From positions 42,513 through 106,512 of the forward strand of contig CAAEBO010000046.1 in NCBI GenBank assembly GCA_900754085.1: 64,000 nucleotides of DNA, given 5' to 3'. This DNA is from Clostridia bacterium. Lineage in GTDB: Bacteria > Bacillota > Clostridia > TANB77 > CAG-508. The translations under genes were made by a program, and so were the position numbers. This document shows positions 2,945 through 55,435 of the stretch, piece after piece. How positions within the stretch are numbered: the first letter of the stretch is position 1; each line of letters opens with the position of its first letter. The notes under the pieces are model-generated. The model saw nothing but the letters and a program-made list of their open reading frames with translations. It made no database searches and was not told the DNA's origin.

Positions 2945-3021
2945 GCTCCCTTAGCTCAGTTGGTCAGAGCAACCGGCTCATAACCGGTGGGTCCAAGGTT
3001 CAAATCCTTGAGGGAGCACCA
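2945..3021 (+). tRNA. tRNA-Met (anticodon CAT). Could alternatively be a lysidine-modified tRNA-Ile2.
   Basis: Cloverleaf with a 7-bp acceptor stem (gctccct/agggagc), a CTCATAA anticodon loop, a GGTTCAAATCC T-loop, and CCA encoded. Confidence 0.85.
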
Positions 3022-3033
3022 TTTTTTATATAT

Positions 3034-3119
3034 GGGTAGGTGGCCGAGTGGCTAAAGGCGGCAGACTGTAAATCTGTTCTCATTTGAGTACGATGGTTCG
3101 AATCCATCCCTGCCCACCA
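3034..3119 (+). tRNA. tRNA-Tyr (anticodon GTA), long variable arm
   Basis: Acceptor gggtagg/cctgccc, anticodon loop ACTGTAAAT, long extra arm, GGTTCGAATCC T-loop, CCA encoded. Confidence 0.9.
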
Positions 3120-31964: not shown

Positions 31965-32039
31965 GGTGCCATTGGGCAGAATCGAACTGCCGACCTTTGG
32001 GTTACGAATCCACTGCTCTACCAACTAAGCTACAACGGC
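31964..32039 (-). tRNA. tRNA-Thr (anticodon CGT)
   Basis: Reverse complement gccgttgtagcttagttggtagagcagtggaTTCGTAAcccaaaggtcggcagttcgattctgcccaatggcacca. Anticodon loop and variable loop are identical to E. coli tRNA-Thr(CGU). A31.C39 mismatch. Confidence 0.7.
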
Positions 32040-44148: not shown

Positions 44149-44224
<76 letters not shown>

Positions 44225-49296: not shown

Positions 49297-50091
49297 ATGA
49301 TGGAAATAACAATTTTTAGAGCAATAATATTAGGAGCAGTTCAAGGTCTTACAGAATTACTACCAATATCAAGCTCTGCGCACTTATTTATAATACCATG
49401 GATTTGTGGATGGGGTGAGATAGGCGATTTTGATGTAGCTTTACATTTTGGTACTTTGCTTGCAATAGGAATATTTTTCTTTAAAGATTGGTTAAAACTA
49501 ATAAAAGGTGGATATGACCAAGCTGTAAAAAAGAAAAAAACATTTGAAGGAAAAATGTTTTGGTATATAGTAATTGCAACAATTCCAGGAGGAATTATTG
49601 GATATTTACTAGATCACTATTGCTCAGATATATTAACAAGACCAGAAATTATAGGATGTGCTTTAATTTTTATGGGTATAGTTTTATATATAATAGATAG
49701 AAAAGCAAAATCAAAAGTAAAATATGAAGAAATGAATTTTAAACAAACATTTTTAATAGGTTTATCACAAGCGCTAGCGTTTATACCAGGTGTTTCTAGG
49801 TCTGGAGTAACTATGACGACAGCTAGAGCAATGGGAATAGAAAGAGAATCAGCAGCTAAATATTCTTTTATGTTATCAGCTCCAATAGTATTAGCAGCTA
49901 CAATATTTAAATTAAAAGATTTTGTTTTTAGCGTACCATTTTTTGTTGGAATACTAGTAAGCTTTTTAGTTGGAATAGTAGTTATTAAATTTTTACTAAA
50001 ATATTTACAAAAAGGCGATTTTAAAATATTTGCAATATATAGAATCGTTATAGGTATTGTTGTATTATTAATATTTATAAACAGAGTATAA
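49297..50091 (+). CDS. uppP: Undecaprenyl-diphosphatase
   Basis: VQGLTELLPISSSAHL signature, with 8 TM segments. Confidence 0.9.
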   Translation: MMEITIFRAIILGAVQGLTELLPISSSAHLFIIPWICGWGEIGDFDVALHFGTLLAIGIFFFKDWLKLIKGGYDQAVKKKKTFEGKMFWYIVIATIPGGIIGYLLDHYCSDILTRPEIIGCALIFMGIVLYIIDRKAKSKVKYEEMNFKQTFLIGLSQALAFIPGVSRSGVTMTTARAMGIERESAAKYSFMLSAPIVLAATIFKLKDFVFSVPFFVGILVSFLVGIVVIKFLLKYLQKGDFKIFAIYRIVIGIVVLLIFINRV

Positions 50092-50216
50092 GATAGAGTT
50101 TTTCTCTATCTTTTTTTGTAGAATTAAAAAAAATACTTATAAATTATTGATATTTTGAAGATAGTATTGTATGATAGTAGAGTATAATATATCAAGCGGA
50201 AAGGGGTAAAAACCTA

Positions 50217-50627
50217 ATGAATAAAATAATAGTAAAAGTACTTACCTGTTGTTTCTTAGTAACATTATTTGCATTAAGTACACAAATAGTATATGCAGAT
50301 TCAGTGGAACAAATAGAAGCACAAGGAGCAGGGCAATTAGTTCAAATAAAAGAAAATTCAGAGAAAAAACTAGAAGATTATAAAGACGAATATGGGTCAG
50401 ACGCATATGGTATTGCTGCATATATATTAAATGTAGTAAGAGTATATAGCATACCTGTATGCTTTGTAGGAATAGCAATTGGAGGAATTTATCAAATAAT
50501 AGGTATTCGTAAGCTTGATGAAAGAGATAGAGGCTTTGGAATAATGATAGGATGTATAACTGTATTAGTAATAACACAACTATTACCACTTATATTTGCT
50601 ATAGTTGTAAAAGGTTGGAGGGGTTAA
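50217..50627 (+). CDS. Small secreted or membrane protein (signal peptide plus two TM helices), first gene of the novel three-gene module
   Basis: Signal peptide ending VYA|DS, a charged 40-aa segment, then two hydrophobic helices. An SD is present, and its stop lies 4 nt before the next start. Confidence 0.55.
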   Translation: MNKIIVKVLTCCFLVTLFALSTQIVYADSVEQIEAQGAGQLVQIKENSEKKLEDYKDEYGSDAYGIAAYILNVVRVYSIPVCFVGIAIGGIYQIIGIRKLDERDRGFGIMIGCITVLVITQLLPLIFAIVVKGWRG

Positions 50628-50630
50628 CAA

Positions 50631-52925
50631 ATGAAAATATTATTTGCAGTAAATAATGAGAAAATATCAAAATCCATTATAAAGAAATATCAAAATGAAT
50701 ATAAAGAAATAATATCTTATAAAAATGTATATTATTTTAATGCTATTTTAAAAGAGTTACAAAAAGACAACACTTATGATCGAATTATAATAAGTGAAGA
50801 CTTAGAGCCTTTTACAAATAATAATTACGAACAAATAGACAAATTTATATTCGAAAGACTAGATAATATTAGTGATGAAGCTACAAATACGTCAAGATCA
50901 GATACTCCAATAATATTAATAAGTTCAGATAGACGTACAAAATCAGATGAAATATTAATAAAATTATTTAGTATAGGAATATATAATGCTCTTATTGGAA
51001 CAGACAGAAATATAGATGAAATTTGTAAATTAATCAAAGTGCCAAGAACAAAAAAAGAAGCAAAATTATATTATAAAATTGATTCAGAAGAAGTAACATA
51101 TCAATCAGAGAGTGAAAACGATGTTAGTGAGTCAGAAATACAAAGTATTTTAGCACACTATAAAAAAATTGGAAGAGATGAGCAAAAATGTGTGGATAGT
51201 TTTGACTCTATAGCTCAGCAATATACAGATATACAATTAAAAGCTATAGCAAGTTTTTTACCATTAAATGTAAAGGCTATATTAGAAGAAAGATCAGCTA
51301 AATATCAACAAATAATGTCAATTGCTGGAGGAAAAGCTAATAATACAAGTGATATTAAAAATAATGAAAATGAAGATAATGGACTAAAAATAGGATTTAT
51401 AGAAACTGCAAATAGTAAAAAGAATCTTGGAAGACCAGTTATAATCCCATCAGCTGTTAATACAAATAAAGTGAAAAAAATGTCTTCAAAATCACAAACT
51501 ACATCTGGATTAAACATACCAGAGCCAATAGAACCAATAATAGATTCTTTTGACGATGATATAGTAGAAGAAGTAGAAGAGGTAAAACCAAAAAGAAGAG
51601 GAAGACCTCCTAAGAAAAAGGTAGAGGAAAATGTACCTAAAGTAGAAGAAAATGAGCCAAAAAGAAGAGGAAGACCTCCTAAGAAGAAACTAGAAGAAGA
51701 TAATAATTTAAACGAGATGCCAGGATTTGATGAAGATGATTCAGATTTAATAAATACGATGCCAGGTTTTGACGATGACGACGATACAGATGTAAATGTA
51801 ATGCCAGGATTTGACGACGATAATACAACATTAAATAGTAGGCCAGGTTTTGATGAAGACGATTCAGATTTAATAAATACGATGCCAGGTTTTGATGATG
51901 ATAATACACATATAAATGATATTACATCAAATAATATAAATAATGGATATAATACTTTTAATTTAAATTCATCTAATAATTCAAATGATTATAATCCAAC
52001 TAAATTAACAAATACTAGAAGAACATATCCAACAGATTCTATAAATGCGTTACTAACCAGAGAAAAGAAAATAGTAACATTTGTTGGAACAAGCAAAAAT
52101 GGAACATCATTTTTAGTAAATAACTTAGCGCTTAGTTTAGCTAAAAAAGGAATTGATGTTGCAATATTGGATGCAACAAAAAATAGAAATGCATATTATA
52201 TATATACAGAAAACGAAGAAGATTTAAGACAAATTGCAGAAAAAAGTATACCAAATTTAATAAATGGAATAGCATCAGGACTAAAAGTTGAAAAAAATCT
52301 TACAGTATACACAGCATTACCAGAAGATGATATTCCAATGGAAAGATATGAAGAAATATTGGCTACTTTAATAAAAAATCATTCATTAGTACTAATAGAT
52401 TGTGACTTTGAAACAGATTTTGGATATTTTGCAGCATCACAAGAAATATATTTAGTACAAAGTATGGACATATTAACAATACAACCACTTACAGCATTTT
52501 TTAGAGATTTACAAAGTAAAAACATTTATCAACCAGAAAACTTAAGAATTGTAATAAATAAAGAATTACCAGTAAAAACATTAACAGTAAAAAATATTAT
52601 AGGCGGATTATCTTTCTATAATGATCCATCAATGTCATTCATGAGGGAATTATTTAACAGAGAAACAGCTAAATATTGTACAATTCCATTTGAAATAGCA
52701 ACATATTCAAAATATTTAGAAGGATTGGTAAATTGTAAAATATCATTAAATGGATATTCAAAAGAATTTTTACAATCATTAAGAACACTAGAAAATATGG
52801 TATATCCATTAATGGAACCAACAGTAAATTCAAATAAAAATGTTAAGGGAAACAACAGCTATGAAAGAACTAGATTTTCAAGTGAAATGAATGACACATT
52901 AAATCAAATGAAGAAAAATTTTTAG
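50631..52925 (+). CDS. Multidomain protein with a pseudo-receiver N-domain, two AT-hooks, five acidic MPGFDxDD repeats and a degenerate ParA/MinD-like (SIMIBI) ATPase domain
   Basis: N-terminus is CheY-like but has NN and E where the acidic pocket should be. KPKRRGRPPKKK occurs twice. There are 5 x 14-aa repeats. The C-terminus has GTSKNGTS where GKGGxGK[ST] is expected, and LVLIDCD as a Walker B-like motif. Confidence 0.7.
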   Translation: MKILFAVNNEKISKSIIKKYQNEYKEIISYKNVYYFNAILKELQKDNTYDRIIISEDLEPFTNNNYEQIDKFIFERLDNISDEATNTSRSDTPIILISSDRRTKSDEILIKLFSIGIYNALIGTDRNIDEICKLIKVPRTKKEAKLYYKIDSEEVTYQSESENDVSESEIQSILAHYKKIGRDEQKCVDSFDSIAQQYTDIQLKAIASFLPLNVKAILEERSAKYQQIMSIAGGKANNTSDIKNNENEDNGLKIGFIETANSKKNLGRPVIIPSAVNTNKVKKMSSKSQTTSGLNIPEPIEPIIDSFDDDIVEEVEEVKPKRRGRPPKKKVEENVPKVEENEPKRRGRPPKKKLEEDNNLNEMPGFDEDDSDLINTMPGFDDDDDTDVNVMPGFDDDNTTLNSRPGFDEDDSDLINTMPGFDDDNTHINDITSNNINNGYNTFNLNSSNNSNDYNPTKLTNTRRTYPTDSINALLTREKKIVTFVGTSKNGTSFLVNNLALSLAKKGIDVAILDATKNRNAYYIYTENEEDLRQIAEKSIPNLINGIASGLKVEKNLTVYTALPEDDIPMERYEEILATLIKNHSLVLIDCDFETDFGYFAASQEIYLVQSMDILTIQPLTAFFRDLQSKNIYQPENLRIVINKELPVKTLTVKNIIGGLSFYNDPSMSFMRELFNRETAKYCTIPFEIATYSKYLEGLVNCKISLNGYSKEFLQSLRTLENMVYPLMEPTVNSNKNVKGNNSYERTRFSSEMNDTLNQMKKNF
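51716..51925 (+). repeat. Five in-frame 42-nt tandem repeats encoding MPGFD(E/D)DD...
   Basis: atgccaggWtttgaYgaWga... recurs with a 42-nt period. The AT-hook-coding 29-mers are also duplicated at 51587 and 51656. Confidence 0.8.
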
Positions 52926-52948
52926 AATAATATAGGGGTGAAAAAGCT

Positions 52949-54070
52949 TTGACAGTAGCAATATTAGTAACTATAGTTATATTGGTTTGCATAATAATAG
53001 CGTTAATGATATATAATATTTCTATTCACAAAAAGATAGCCAAATTTAGTAATATAAGTGAAAAAATAAATGGACTAAATGTATTACAAAATTTTATGGA
53101 TACAATAGGAGAATACTCAAGTGTAGAAGAAAAAATACAAAAAATAAATGAAATTATTTTAAATAAATATAGTATATTAAAATATTCTACAATAGTTGTA
53201 TTTAATGGTGCTGAATATGATTTAAAAGCTTCAAATGTAGACGAAAAGCATTGGCAGACTTTAACCGAATTGGGTGAAGAAGAAATATTTAAAGATAGTA
53301 TTGCAACAGCAACACCAAAATATATAACTGTAGAAAAAGAATCAGAAAAGTTACCATATCAAAAAATGGAATTTGGACGAGCAAAATCTGCAATGTTCTT
53401 TCCATTGTATATAGATAATGTTTATATTGGTTATTGGTTAATAGAAAGCAGTGAAATTCATGCTTTTGATTCAATAGATACAGCCATAATAGAAGTAATT
53501 AGAGATAATATAGTAACAATATTGAAGACAGTTCAATATCAAAATACAGTAGAAAATACTGTAAGACAAGATTTATTTACAGGTTTAAATTCTGCTGAAT
53601 ACTTGTATGGGCTAGGAAAAAAAGAAATAGATAAATATACAATTTCAACAGTATGTATGTTTAGAATAACGAATATAGAAGAAATAAATGAAAAAATAAG
53701 TAGACATTTAGGTAATAAAGTAATTACAGAAGTAAGTAGATTTTTTGAAAATAATATATCTAAGGAATATTTATTTGTAAGATATATGGGACCTAAATTT
53801 GTAATAGTATTTTCGGGTGTACAATCAGAAGACGTTGCAAACTTTTTAGAAGATATAAAAGCACAAATAGAAGAAATGCAAATACATCCAGATTTAGATG
53901 ACAAAGCAATAGCTAATGTGAAAAATAAAGAAGAAATATATGTTAGTCCAAGATTAAATTTTGTATTAACATCATATTATAAAGGTACATCTATGGATGG
54001 ATTAACTAAGAAGTTAGAAGAATATATAGATAATGCAAATAAGGGTGAAAGTGATATAAATTATATTTAA
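52949..54070 (+). CDS. Membrane protein with a GAF-like domain and a degenerate GGDEF domain (MGPKF where GG[D/E]EF is expected)
   Basis: N-terminal TM. RQDLFTGLNS lines up with GGDEF RDxLTGLxNR, HLGNKV with GHxxGD, and RYMGPKFVIVF with RxGGDEFxxl. TTG start with an SD. Confidence 0.65.
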   Translation: MTVAILVTIVILVCIIIALMIYNISIHKKIAKFSNISEKINGLNVLQNFMDTIGEYSSVEEKIQKINEIILNKYSILKYSTIVVFNGAEYDLKASNVDEKHWQTLTELGEEEIFKDSIATATPKYITVEKESEKLPYQKMEFGRAKSAMFFPLYIDNVYIGYWLIESSEIHAFDSIDTAIIEVIRDNIVTILKTVQYQNTVENTVRQDLFTGLNSAEYLYGLGKKEIDKYTISTVCMFRITNIEEINEKISRHLGNKVITEVSRFFENNISKEYLFVRYMGPKFVIVFSGVQSEDVANFLEDIKAQIEEMQIHPDLDDKAIANVKNKEEIYVSPRLNFVLTSYYKGTSMDGLTKKLEEYIDNANKGESDINYI

Positions 54071-54085
54071 AAGGAGGAAAGAAGT

Positions 54086-54343
54086 ATGGCAAATTTTGAT
54101 AAAACAATGAGTTTTAAAGTAGAAAGAGATGCAAGTATTAAAGTAAAGGAAATTTTGAAAGAAGTTTATGACGCTTTAGTAGAAAAAGGATATAATCCAA
54201 TAAACCAAATTGTAGGATATATACTATCTGGAGATCCAACTTATATTACTAGTTATAATGATGCAAGAAATAAAATAAGATTAATAGAACGTGATGAATT
54301 ACTAGAAAAAATGGTTAAAAATTATATAGGATTAGAAGAATAA
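54086..54343 (+). CDS. IreB/UPF0297 family protein (YrzL-like)
   Basis: ...[21 protein letters not shown]... conserved core. Arranged as in the ireB-ruvX-yrzB operon. Confidence 0.8.
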
Positions 54344-54347
54344 TAAT

Positions 54348-54770
54348 ATGAGAATATTAGGAATAGATTATGGTGATGCAAGGACTGGTGTAGCTATAAC
54401 AGATCCATTAGGAATTACAGCACAAGGACTAAAAACTATAAACAATCAAAATAGTGATAAAATTTTACTTAAAGAAATTGAAGAGATAGTAAATGAATAT
54501 AATGTATCTAAAATAGTAATAGGTATGCCACTAAATTTAAAAGGTGAAAAAACGGTACGTGCAGAGAAAACAGAAAAATTTATTCATAAATTAAAATGTA
54601 AATTTGGTAAAATGCCTATAGAAATAGTAGATGAAAGGCTAACAACAGTTCAAGCACACAAAACTATGAATTTTTTAGATGTAAATAAAAGAAACAAAAA
54701 AAATATAGTAGATACTATAGCTGCTGTATACATTTTAGAAACATATATGAGAAAAGAAGAGAAAAAATAG
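54348..54770 (+). CDS. ruvX: Putative Holliday junction resolvase / pre-16S rRNA nuclease YqgF
   Basis: ILGIDYGxxRTGVAI RNase H-like N-terminus. Confidence 0.9.
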   Translation: MRILGIDYGDARTGVAITDPLGITAQGLKTINNQNSDKILLKEIEEIVNEYNVSKIVIGMPLNLKGEKTVRAEKTEKFIHKLKCKFGKMPIEIVDERLTTVQAHKTMNFLDVNKRNKKNIVDTIAAVYILETYMRKEEKK

Positions 54771-54847
54771 TTGCAAAAAATACAAAAATAGTATATGATA
54801 GTGAAAATTGAAAATAATAATAATTAAGATATCGAAAGGAGAATAAT

Positions 54848-55162
54848 ATGAGTGAAGATATCAATACACCAAATAATGGTGAAGAATTAGACAACATAAT
54901 AATTTTAAATGATGAAAATGGAAATGAAGTAAAATTTGAATTCTTAGATTTAATGGAATATGAAGGAGAAGAATATATAATCTTACTACCAACAGAAGAA
55001 AGTGAAGATAATGACGAAGTCGTTATCTTAAAAGTTGAAGATGTAGAAGACGATCCAGATATGGAAACTTATGTTAGCGTAGATGACGAAGATACTTTAA
55101 ATGCAGTATTTGAAATGTTTAAAGAAAAATTTAAAGATGAATTCAATTTTATAGATGAATAG
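54848..55162 (+). CDS. DUF1292 family acidic protein (YrzB-like)
   Basis: Acidic protein of about 100 aa in the conserved position after ruvX. Confidence 0.75.
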   Translation: MSEDINTPNNGEELDNIIILNDENGNEVKFEFLDLMEYEGEEYIILLPTEESEDNDEVVILKVEDVEDDPDMETYVSVDDEDTLNAVFEMFKEKFKDEFNFIDE

Positions 55163-55194
55163 TAAATACATTAAAAAAGAGGAGTAATTATATT

Positions 55195-55392
55195 TTTATA
55201 TTTAGAGAATAAAGGTTATTAGCTGAAAGCCTTTTATATATAATATAATGAAGGTAGCTTTTTTGTAGATATAGTGAAATAATAGTAGCTATATTCGGGT
55301 TGACTCCGTTAAAAGTTATAATGAGTATTTTTAATATTAAGGTGGTACCGTAAGAGTAATCTTGCCCTTAAAGGCAGGCTTACTCTTTTTTT
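55195..55392 (+). ncRNA. T-box riboswitch leader of valS
   Basis: AGAGA box and K-turn-like GA motif in stem I, candidate specifier GUA at about 55249, T-box sequence AAGGTGGTACCG at 55339-55350, and a terminator at 55352-55392 followed by a T-run. Confidence 0.7.
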
Positions 55393-55435
55393 GTATTAGT
55401 ATTAATAGGTATTTTATAAAGAAGGAGGAATTTTT

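Follow-up and report, generated by a model that had tools for sequence, protein, structure and literature searches.

Proteins with a degenerate GGDEF domain (hereafter GGDEF*) are usually filed as 'diguanylate cyclases' or presumed to be receptors of cyclic di-GMP (c-di-GMP). The GGDEF* domain of BcsE binds BcsQ, a member of the MinD/ParA family, without c-di-GMP and even with a mutated I-site, and BcsE brings BcsRQ to the membrane via the small protein BcsF (PMC7439463). The GGDEF domain of Staphylococcus aureus GdpS, and not its catalytic residues, recruits DgkB to the membrane; this domain fused to a single transmembrane helix is sufficient, and no synthesis of c-di-GMP is known from S. aureus (PMC11962490). 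The function of Bacillus subtilis YdaK requires both an RxxD I-site (R202, D205) and cellular cyclases (PMC5422440). Here, we analyzed a GGDEF* gene in a 64 000-nt stretch of DNA from a Clostridia bacterium (GenBank assembly GCA_900754085.1, contig CAAEBO010000046.1; the whole stretch is hereafter called the window). The gene is located at 52949..54070 on the + strand and encodes a pseudoenzyme of 373 amino acids (aa), in which a transmembrane anchor and a GAF domain precede the GGDEF* domain. Directly upstream lies the gene for a 764-aa protein (50631..52925, + strand; hereafter the partner), which combines AT-hooks with a predicted MinD/ParA/BcsQ-fold domain. The GGDEF* protein represents a distinct and lineage-wide family that is locked to this AT-hook/MinD-like pseudo-ATPase, is uncharacterised, and provides a clean counter-case to the usual filing of degenerate GGDEF domains.

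By analogy, the GGDEF* protein would work most like the GGDEF* domain of BcsE in its pairing with BcsQ, although the two systems are not homologous at the operon level. Both systems combine a degenerate GGDEF* domain, a MinD/ParA-family (SIMIBI) protein and a small protein of the membrane, and BcsQ (6yay, 1.1e-8) was among the top structural matches of the window partner. However, BcsE carries a functional RxxD I-site and senses c-di-GMP, whereas the window protein has no RxxD; BcsE is a soluble REC*-GGDEF* protein with an additional N-terminal domain, whereas the window protein has a transmembrane-GAF-GGDEF* architecture; and the partner differs from BcsQ in its AT-hooks, its large N-terminal domain and its lysine-less P-loop. 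No BcsE-type entry was found when PDB was searched with the sequence of the GGDEF* protein, and no cellulose synthase genes (bcsA/B) were present among the identified neighbours of the locus. A literature search for a described pair of a degenerate GGDEF protein and a ParA-like protein returned nothing relevant, and BcsE and BcsQ were reached through the structural match.

Along with BcsE–BcsQ, GdpS–DgkB is the nearest functional precedent. GdpS is likewise a membrane-anchored GGDEF protein of a Firmicute; however, its membrane domain is of the 5TMR-LYT type, it lacks a GAF domain and its partner is an unlinked lipid kinase, whereas the window protein has one transmembrane helix, a GAF domain and a MinD-like neighbour, and it scored 22.3 bits against a cutoff of 400 for the GdpS model of NCBIfam (NF047872). 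YdaK is also a membrane-anchored degenerate GGDEF protein of a Firmicute and is encoded in an operon with its presumed target machinery, but it has four transmembrane helices, no GAF domain, an exopolysaccharide operon and an I-site. The sequence-only reading of this gene had suggested a receptor or scaffold role as in YdaK. The scaffold part of this suggestion remains plausible, whereas the YdaK-style receptor part fails because RxxD is absent from the window family. Active GAF-GGDEF cyclases, such as Dcsbis (PA2771, 4zmu) and B. subtilis DgcP, share the arrangement of a GAF domain, a connecting helix and a GGDEF domain; in contrast to these enzymes, the window clade lacks the catalytic residues, and the window protein has a transmembrane anchor and an obligatory MinD-like neighbour.

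Judged by both hidden Markov models and predicted fold, the GGDEF* protein is a true member of the GGDEF-fold family, in agreement with the identity first assigned to it. The Pfam GGDEF model (PF00990) matched residues 208–318 with 33.1 bits (E = 5.9e-8), which exceeds its gathering score of 23.8. For TIGR00254 of NCBIfam, the score of 37.3 bits was marginally under the cutoff of 37.4; the equivalog-level cyclase models of NCBIfam all stayed far below their own thresholds. In a phmmer search against PDB, Leptospira DgcR (6zxb) was the top match (E = 3.8e-6), followed by Escherichia coli DosC (E values ranging to 1e-5). In these alignments, RYMGPKF was placed column for column on RFGGEEF, VRQDLFTGL on IRDVMTGL, MFRIT on MIDID and SRHLGN on GHEIGD, and the landmarks picked out in the sequence-only reading (MGPKF at the position of GG[DE]EF, RQDLFTGLNS opposite RDxLTGLxNR and HLGNKV opposite GHxxGD) were correctly located. 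An AlphaFold2 model computed with 36 family sequences as input had a predicted local distance difference test (pLDDT) value of 90.2, and Foldseek superimposed it on solved GGDEF domains (DosC, Dcsbis and a Thermotoga maritima protein) with template modelling scores of 0.79–0.86 and root-mean-square deviations of 2.0–2.7 Å; the GAF-GGDEF cyclase Dcsbis (4zmu) was matched along the full length of the model. Pfam, phmmer, Foldseek and the census of orthologs described below place the degenerate GGDEF domain at aa 205–373 (53561..54067, + strand). The open reading frame (ORF) begins with a TTG codon, and GGGGTG is found 8 nt upstream of it.

The proposal that a transmembrane segment and a GAF-like sensor stand ahead of this domain was also borne out. 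A hydrophobic helix at aa 3–24 (52955..53020, + strand), read from the sequence as a transmembrane anchor, is followed by the basic stretch HKKIAKF, and the positive-inside rule predicts that most of the protein lies in the cytoplasm. The AlphaFold2 model contains one continuous helix at residues 2–53, an α/β domain at 59–167 and a connecting helix at 178–203, followed by the GGDEF fold; the GAF domain and the long connecting helix were assigned to aa 55–203 (53111..53557, + strand) from profile matches in PDB and the predicted secondary structure. The GAF and PAS models of Pfam did not match the N-terminal half as a single sequence even at E = 10, and the GAF domain was instead detected by comparing a family profile of aa 26–206 with PDB. 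This profile matched the GAF domains of 4g3v (1e-4), 3e0y (2e-4; positions 9–171, the whole domain) and 3ci6 (2.5e-4), as well as those of PDE5, YebR and other GAF entries. The order of secondary-structure elements in the model (H-E-E-H-H-E-E-E-H) fits a GAF domain, as does the full-length match to the GAF-GGDEF protein 4zmu, but a PAS-like fold is also conceivable; the assignment to GAF instead of PAS is based on the profile matches and this order. The family motifs of this part are KYSTIVVF, ASNV and DNVYIGYW, and in an alignment with distant relatives, Asn96, Pro152 and Gly161 were invariant even at 19% identity.

We compared the residues of the GGDEF* domain with those of distant full-length relatives with canonical motifs and took a census of 121 close orthologs. 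The signature RxGG[DE]EF is replaced with RYMGPKF (53780–53800, + strand), which was found in 116 of the 121 orthologs. The metal-binding segment (I/L)D(I/V)D is replaced with MFRIT (53657–53671, + strand; MF[RK]I[TIV] in the clade). Both metal-binding acidic positions are lost. GHxxGD is replaced with RHLGN (53702–53716, + strand), and most orthologs have R..GN here. As for the guanine-contacting pair, Asn247 is invariant, and the place of the Asp is taken by Asn both in the window protein and in the majority of orthologs, with a minority retaining Asp. In the clade, the C-terminal ADxALYxAKxxGRN is replaced with LEEY(I/L)DNA(D/N)K, in which the Lys/Arg phosphate binders are substituted. A proline is located inside the former catalytic hairpin, the wide-turn motif D208-x-x-x-G-L is retained, and a new invariant motif, YYKGT, is found at 53975–53989 (+ strand). 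Five residues upstream of the signature, where the I-site RxxD would lie, the window protein has SKEY (53759–53770, + strand), and the clade pattern is S[KS][ED]Y; RxxD was absent there from all 121 orthologs. Moreover, no conserved RxxD column pair (at least 60% R and D) was present anywhere in the GGDEF* protein or in the conserved domains of the partner, and the I-site conservation that the sequence-only reading had proposed to check, as well as its idea of a second-messenger input into the module, did not hold. Arg residues 144, 206, 252 and 278 are each conserved in at least 90% of the orthologs.

Judged from these residues, the GGDEF* protein is equipped neither for cyclase catalysis nor for binding c-di-GMP at a classical I-site: all tested defining features of active cyclases and of I-site receptors have been lost, except for the retained Asn247. 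The opinion of the sequence-only reading that cyclase activity is unlikely can be strengthened to very unlikely, since signature, metal-binding and C-terminal residues are all replaced, and the degeneration extends beyond what that reading had noticed. When the six frames of 52801–54200 and of the whole window were searched with a regular expression, no GG[DE]EF-like string was found, and a family hidden Markov model searched against all six-frame ORFs of the window detected no second GGDEF domain besides that of the GGDEF* gene. Because RYMGPKF was present in 116 of 121 orthologs from independent assemblies, an assembly artefact is excluded, and the concern that an intact GGDEF motif might be restored in another frame or another assembly is removed.

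The family is widespread and under strong constraint. The ratio of nonsynonymous to synonymous substitutions (dN/dS) was 0.03–0.05 in comparisons with nine species at 93–96% identity, and the GAF half and the degenerate GGDEF half gave equally low values; orthologs down to ~60% identity retained KYSTIVVF, DNVYIGYW, RYMGPKF and YYKGT. In a distribution scan with one genome per GTDB species, at least 593 loci were confirmed, and the family was thus found in at least 593 species-level genomes; 80 loci were retained for the analysis of gene context. All 80 were from metagenome-assembled genomes of uncultured gut Clostridia ('Clostridium sp.' UMGS bins and Candidatus Merdicola), with chicken, rabbit, sheep rumen and human cohorts among the sources. 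The exact GGDEF* protein occurs in public collections, and a member of its 90%-identity cluster, found on 863 contigs, is named 'GGDEF domain-containing protein'; in NCBI and JGI, some orthologs bear the name 'diguanylate cyclase'. To judge from the contig count, the carriers appear to be common in the gut. An exhaustive HMMER search over 1.84 billion cluster representatives returned only 1237 matches at E ≤ 1e-3, which indicates that the GGDEF* domain is too diverged to draw in ordinary GGDEF proteins.

The gene context is also conserved. In 80 out of 80 retained loci, the order was a small transmembrane protein, a ~760-aa partner, the GGDEF* protein, IreB, RuvX and DUF1292, with the small transmembrane gene holding the first place in nearly all loci that extend that far. 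In the window, the small protein (50217..50627, + strand; 136 aa) has a signal-peptide-like N-terminus and two transmembrane helices, and its Pfam matches were all below threshold. IreB, RuvX and DUF1292 (54086..55162, + strand) were identified by Pfam matches; they are syntenic in the clade and lie outside the mobile three-gene module formed by the small transmembrane protein, the partner and the GGDEF* protein. The intergenic gaps along the block are 3, 23, 15, 4 and 77 nt, and terminator-like sites on the + strand were found only at 50090–50112 and 55361–55378, with none between 50112 and 55361. The short gaps and the lack of an internal terminator-like site make a single transcript likely, and IreB, RuvX and DUF1292 are probably co-transcribed with the module. 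The link of the GGDEF* protein to the protein upstream, which the sequence-only reading had called a pseudo-ParA, is therefore upheld by adjacency in 80 out of 80 loci and in distant relatives.

The C-terminal domain of the partner (52032-52814, + strand) was assigned to the MinD/ParA/BcsQ fold by AlphaFold2 and Foldseek. Sequence searches had failed: CbiA/MipZ matches in Pfam were below threshold, single-sequence matches in PDB had E > 1, and a family profile compared with PDB found nothing, so the fold was identified by structure prediction and Foldseek alone. The model of aa 468–764 (pLDDT 81.4) matched MinD (4v02, 1.4e-9) and BcsQ (6yay, 1.1e-8) best, followed by FlhG, Soj, FleN and TadZ (3fkq, 1e-6), and the domain is accordingly predicted to be of the SIMIBI class. 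Its P-loop, GTSKNGTSF (52086–52112, + strand), has Thr at the position of the P-loop lysine and does not correspond to the deviant-Walker-A pattern KGGxxGK[ST]; a lysine-less P-loop was retained in 69 of 70 partner orthologs, and the partners in two distant loci (L081 and L083) read GAHKAGTTF and GAPKSGTTF. With these features, the label pseudo-ParA is a fair one. After a low-confidence linker, the protein ends in a conserved amphipathic helix, FSSEMNDTLNQMKKNF (52875–52922, + strand), which could be a MinD-like membrane-targeting sequence or a partner-binding peptide.

The disordered linker of the partner carries two identical AT-hooks, RRGRPPKKK (51594–51620 and 51663–51689, + strand). The core [RK]GRP occurred exactly twice in 69 of 70 partner orthologs, one of which has a precomputed Pfam AT_hook match, and this doubled core suggests conserved minor-groove binding of AT-rich DNA. 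Two 'terminator-like' sites on the − strand (51596–51611 and 51665–51680) are the reverse complement of the AT-hook codons (AAGAGGAAGACCTCCT) and represent an artefact of the scan. Five acidic repeats of the form [MR]PGFD[ED]D, spaced ~14 residues apart, follow at 51717–51902 (+ strand); species differ in the number of copies (0 to 10), and the repeats matched no known motif. The N-terminal domain (aa 1–235) is highly conserved, matched nothing in Pfam or in a PDB profile search, and retrieved 571 lineage-restricted proteins without Pfam domains in a homolog search. An identity as a receiver domain was considered and dropped, since there was no PDB profile match and hhalign gave a probability of 0.4% against CheY. 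TadZ/CpaE-type ParA proteins have an atypical Walker A motif and an extra N-terminal domain and are thought to be localisation hubs rather than motors. The partner resembles them in its ParA/MinD fold, its atypical Walker A and its extra N-terminal domain, with 3fkq matched at 1e-6; however, there are no Tad/Flp pilus genes near the window locus, the N-terminal domain of the partner has no detectable similarity to receivers, and the AT-hooks and acidic PGFDDD repeats are confined to the window partner family. The partner is a single ORF in the window and in 69 of 79 GTDB loci. Public gene calls often split the 764-aa ORF into N- and C-terminal parts (P0455, 315 aa; P0271, 416 aa), even at 100% identity; a probable cause is the low-complexity linker, at which assemblies may break or gene calling may go wrong.

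Relatives of the GGDEF* protein at 26–31% identity are still paired with a partner (L081, L083 and L087), and some of them have intact active sites. In L081, the cyclase-like protein (P0154, 895–1974) has intact DID, GHxxGD, GGEEF and ALYRAKENGRN motifs and is encoded between IreB-RuvX and a partner homolog whose MinD-like domain is 38% identical. In L087, the corresponding protein (P0149, 3687–4757) has DID and GGGEF and retains GHxxGD; upstream of it are a small transmembrane protein (1176–1646), a weak homolog of the 136-aa window protein with 25% identity, and a 664-aa partner that is homologous in its N- and C-terminal domains, and downstream is an unrelated energy-coupling factor (ECF) transporter, with IreB, RuvX and DUF1292 absent. 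A further relative directly after a partner (P0150) has the motif SGIRF. The module relatives with an active-type site lack the I-site Arg (SDED, TSHD), so P0154 and P0149 would be apparently functional, product-uninhibited cyclases paired with a lysine-less MinD-like protein. All catalytic motifs are retained in P0154, P0189, P0209, P0226 and other distant homologs; of the canonical GAF-GGDEF relatives, P0255, P0189 and P0226 are not in the module, with IreB also absent, and therefore inform only the ancestry of the domain.

The occurrence of GGEEF-intact relatives in the same module indicates that the three-gene module predates the loss of activity, and the loss of the IreB context in L087, where the small transmembrane protein and the partner are kept, indicates that the module moves as a unit independently of IreB. 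Because the Thr P-loop is also present in distant partners, the lysine-less P-loop is ancestral to the module, whereas the dead cyclase is derived. As judged from these comparisons, the module began with a live cyclase, which became a pseudoenzyme in the lineage of gut Clostridia. In addition, since the active forms in the module have no I-site Arg, the domain is better regarded as a synthesis output or a docking element than as a sensor of c-di-GMP.

These results are consistent with a model in which the GGDEF* protein is a membrane-tethered, GAF-bearing dead cyclase without an I-site that serves as a docking element for its MinD-like partner independently of c-di-GMP, a proposal that we consider to be evenly balanced between right and wrong. 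Its ancestor would have been an active diguanylate cyclase of the GAF-GGDEF type, encoded in a three-gene module that existed by then; the cyclase chemistry would have disappeared, with strong purifying selection maintaining the fold, the GAF sensor and the partnership. The GGDEF* domain would then act as a protein-docking surface that recruits or regulates the MinD/ParA-fold domain of the partner at the membrane, possibly gated by a ligand of the GAF domain and independently of c-di-GMP, and through its two AT-hooks the partner could link the membrane to AT-rich DNA or to some other target. In this model, contact between the GGDEF* protein and the partner, recruitment to the membrane, the lack of a role for c-di-GMP, DNA binding by the AT-hooks and gating by the GAF domain are inferred. 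Several observations weigh against this proposal. The adjacency of the two genes also fits a shared pathway without contact, and no Rosetta-stone fusion of the GGDEF* gene with the partner gene was seen. With an amphipathic C-terminal helix as a candidate for binding the membrane or a partner, the MinD-like protein may not need a tether, and, given the invariant Asn247, a non-canonical nucleotide site may exist. The 64-kb window, to which the analysis of this genome was confined, holds no other GGDEF domain and no c-di-GMP riboswitch.

A more specific form of the docking proposal would be a hitherto undescribed system of two pseudoenzymes, in which a GAF-gated, membrane-anchored dead cyclase captures a lysine-less, MinD-like protein that holds AT-rich DNA by its AT-hooks. 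Such a pair could be a membrane–DNA tether or positioning device that is independent of hydrolysis, derived from a c-di-GMP-producing ancestor and specific to uncultured gut Clostridia with reduced genomes; we put this forward only as a speculation that is unlikely to be right.

The retention of a GGDEF fold next to a MinD-like protein could also be explained by ligand binding. The GGDEF* protein might be a receptor for c-di-GMP or another cyclic dinucleotide at a non-canonical site and pass this input to the partner, which would be a modified version of the idea in the sequence-only reading. Many degenerate GGDEF proteins are receptors (YdaK, PMC5422440; BcsE, PMC7439463; PelD; PopA), c-di-GMP was once made in the module according to its GGEEF-intact relatives, and four Arg residues (144, 206, 252 and 278) are highly conserved. 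However, RxxD is absent from all 121 orthologs and is conserved in neither protein, and the I-site Arg is missing even from the module relatives with an active-type site. Neither a GEMM riboswitch nor any further component of c-di-GMP signalling was found in the window, and we thus regard a receptor as unlikely. The degenerate A-site might instead bind a mononucleotide (GTP or ATP) as an allosteric sensor of energy or nucleotide levels. Sensing of this kind has been described for the GGDEF* domains of some phosphodiesterases and for GdpP, and Asn247, the guanine-contacting equivalent, is invariant and was present in 37 of 39 when distant relatives were included; Arg278 before the signature and D208-x-x-x-G-L are likewise conserved. 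In contrast, neither the metal-binding acids nor the Lys/Arg phosphate binders of the C-terminus are retained, most orthologs have Asn in place of the base-contacting Asp (a minority have Asp), and a proline stands in the former catalytic hairpin, which leaves mononucleotide sensing quite improbable.

A different question is whether the GGDEF* protein serves the protein upstream of it at all. It might instead serve the cell-envelope or ribosome-maturation genes IreB, RuvX and DUF1292, or an unlinked enzyme in the manner of GdpS, whose partner is encoded elsewhere (PMC11962490), with the adjacency to the partner reflecting shared regulation. The gap of 15 nt to IreB, the lack of a terminator-like site before 55361 and the presence of IreB-RuvX downstream in distant L081 as well are in line with this explanation. 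However, L087 has lost the IreB context and keeps the small transmembrane protein and the MinD-like partner, and the more distant GAF-GGDEF relatives without a partner are also without IreB. Moreover, IreB-RuvX-DUF1292 is generally regarded as a generic cluster of Firmicutes. Independence from the partner accordingly has a small chance of being correct. Finally, the unusual motif and the 'diguanylate cyclase' labels in NCBI and JGI might be taken to indicate a decaying pseudogene, an error of assembly or reading frame, or a cyclase that is still active despite its atypical signature. All three are hardly credible: the ORF is intact and its dN/dS is 0.03–0.05, the motif recurs in 116 of 121 orthologs from independent assemblies, GG[DE]EF is found in no frame, and neither acid of two-metal catalysis remains. 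As far as sequence analysis allows, these readings are effectively excluded.

The docking proposal would place this family with BcsE–BcsQ and GdpS–DgkB, in support of the emerging view of the GGDEF fold as a platform for protein recruitment, and it would make the coupling of GGDEF and MinD/ParA proteins a recurring theme. Although neither the active site nor the I-site is left, the protein remains under very strong selection in a fixed three-gene module, in which live-cyclase relatives are also found. For metagenomic surveys, this is a warning against counting such genes as capacity for c-di-GMP signalling. The family also offers a testable entry point to the cell biology of an uncultured gut lineage.

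The neighbours of the locus in the window are a tetratricopeptide repeat (TPR) protein, a 285-aa ORF, a 264-aa membrane ORF (the latter two were not scanned with Pfam), IreB, RuvX, DUF1292 and an 894-aa ORF (55436–58120), which we take, reading by eye, to be valS. The last ORF is preceded by a 273-nt leader (55163–55435) with a hairpin and a T-run at 55361–55378. An Rfam scan near the locus detected no c-di-GMP riboswitch (GEMM) and no T-box at the gathering score, and the leader may be a divergent T-box or an attenuator. The G+C content of the window is ~27%, the GC skew is positive over most of its length, and the ORFs listed for 47–58 kb are on the + strand. Four tRNA genes were found at 2945–3018, 3034–3116 and 44149–44221 on the + strand and at 31967–32039 on the − strand, and the start of a 16S rRNA gene occupies the end of the window (63779–64000).

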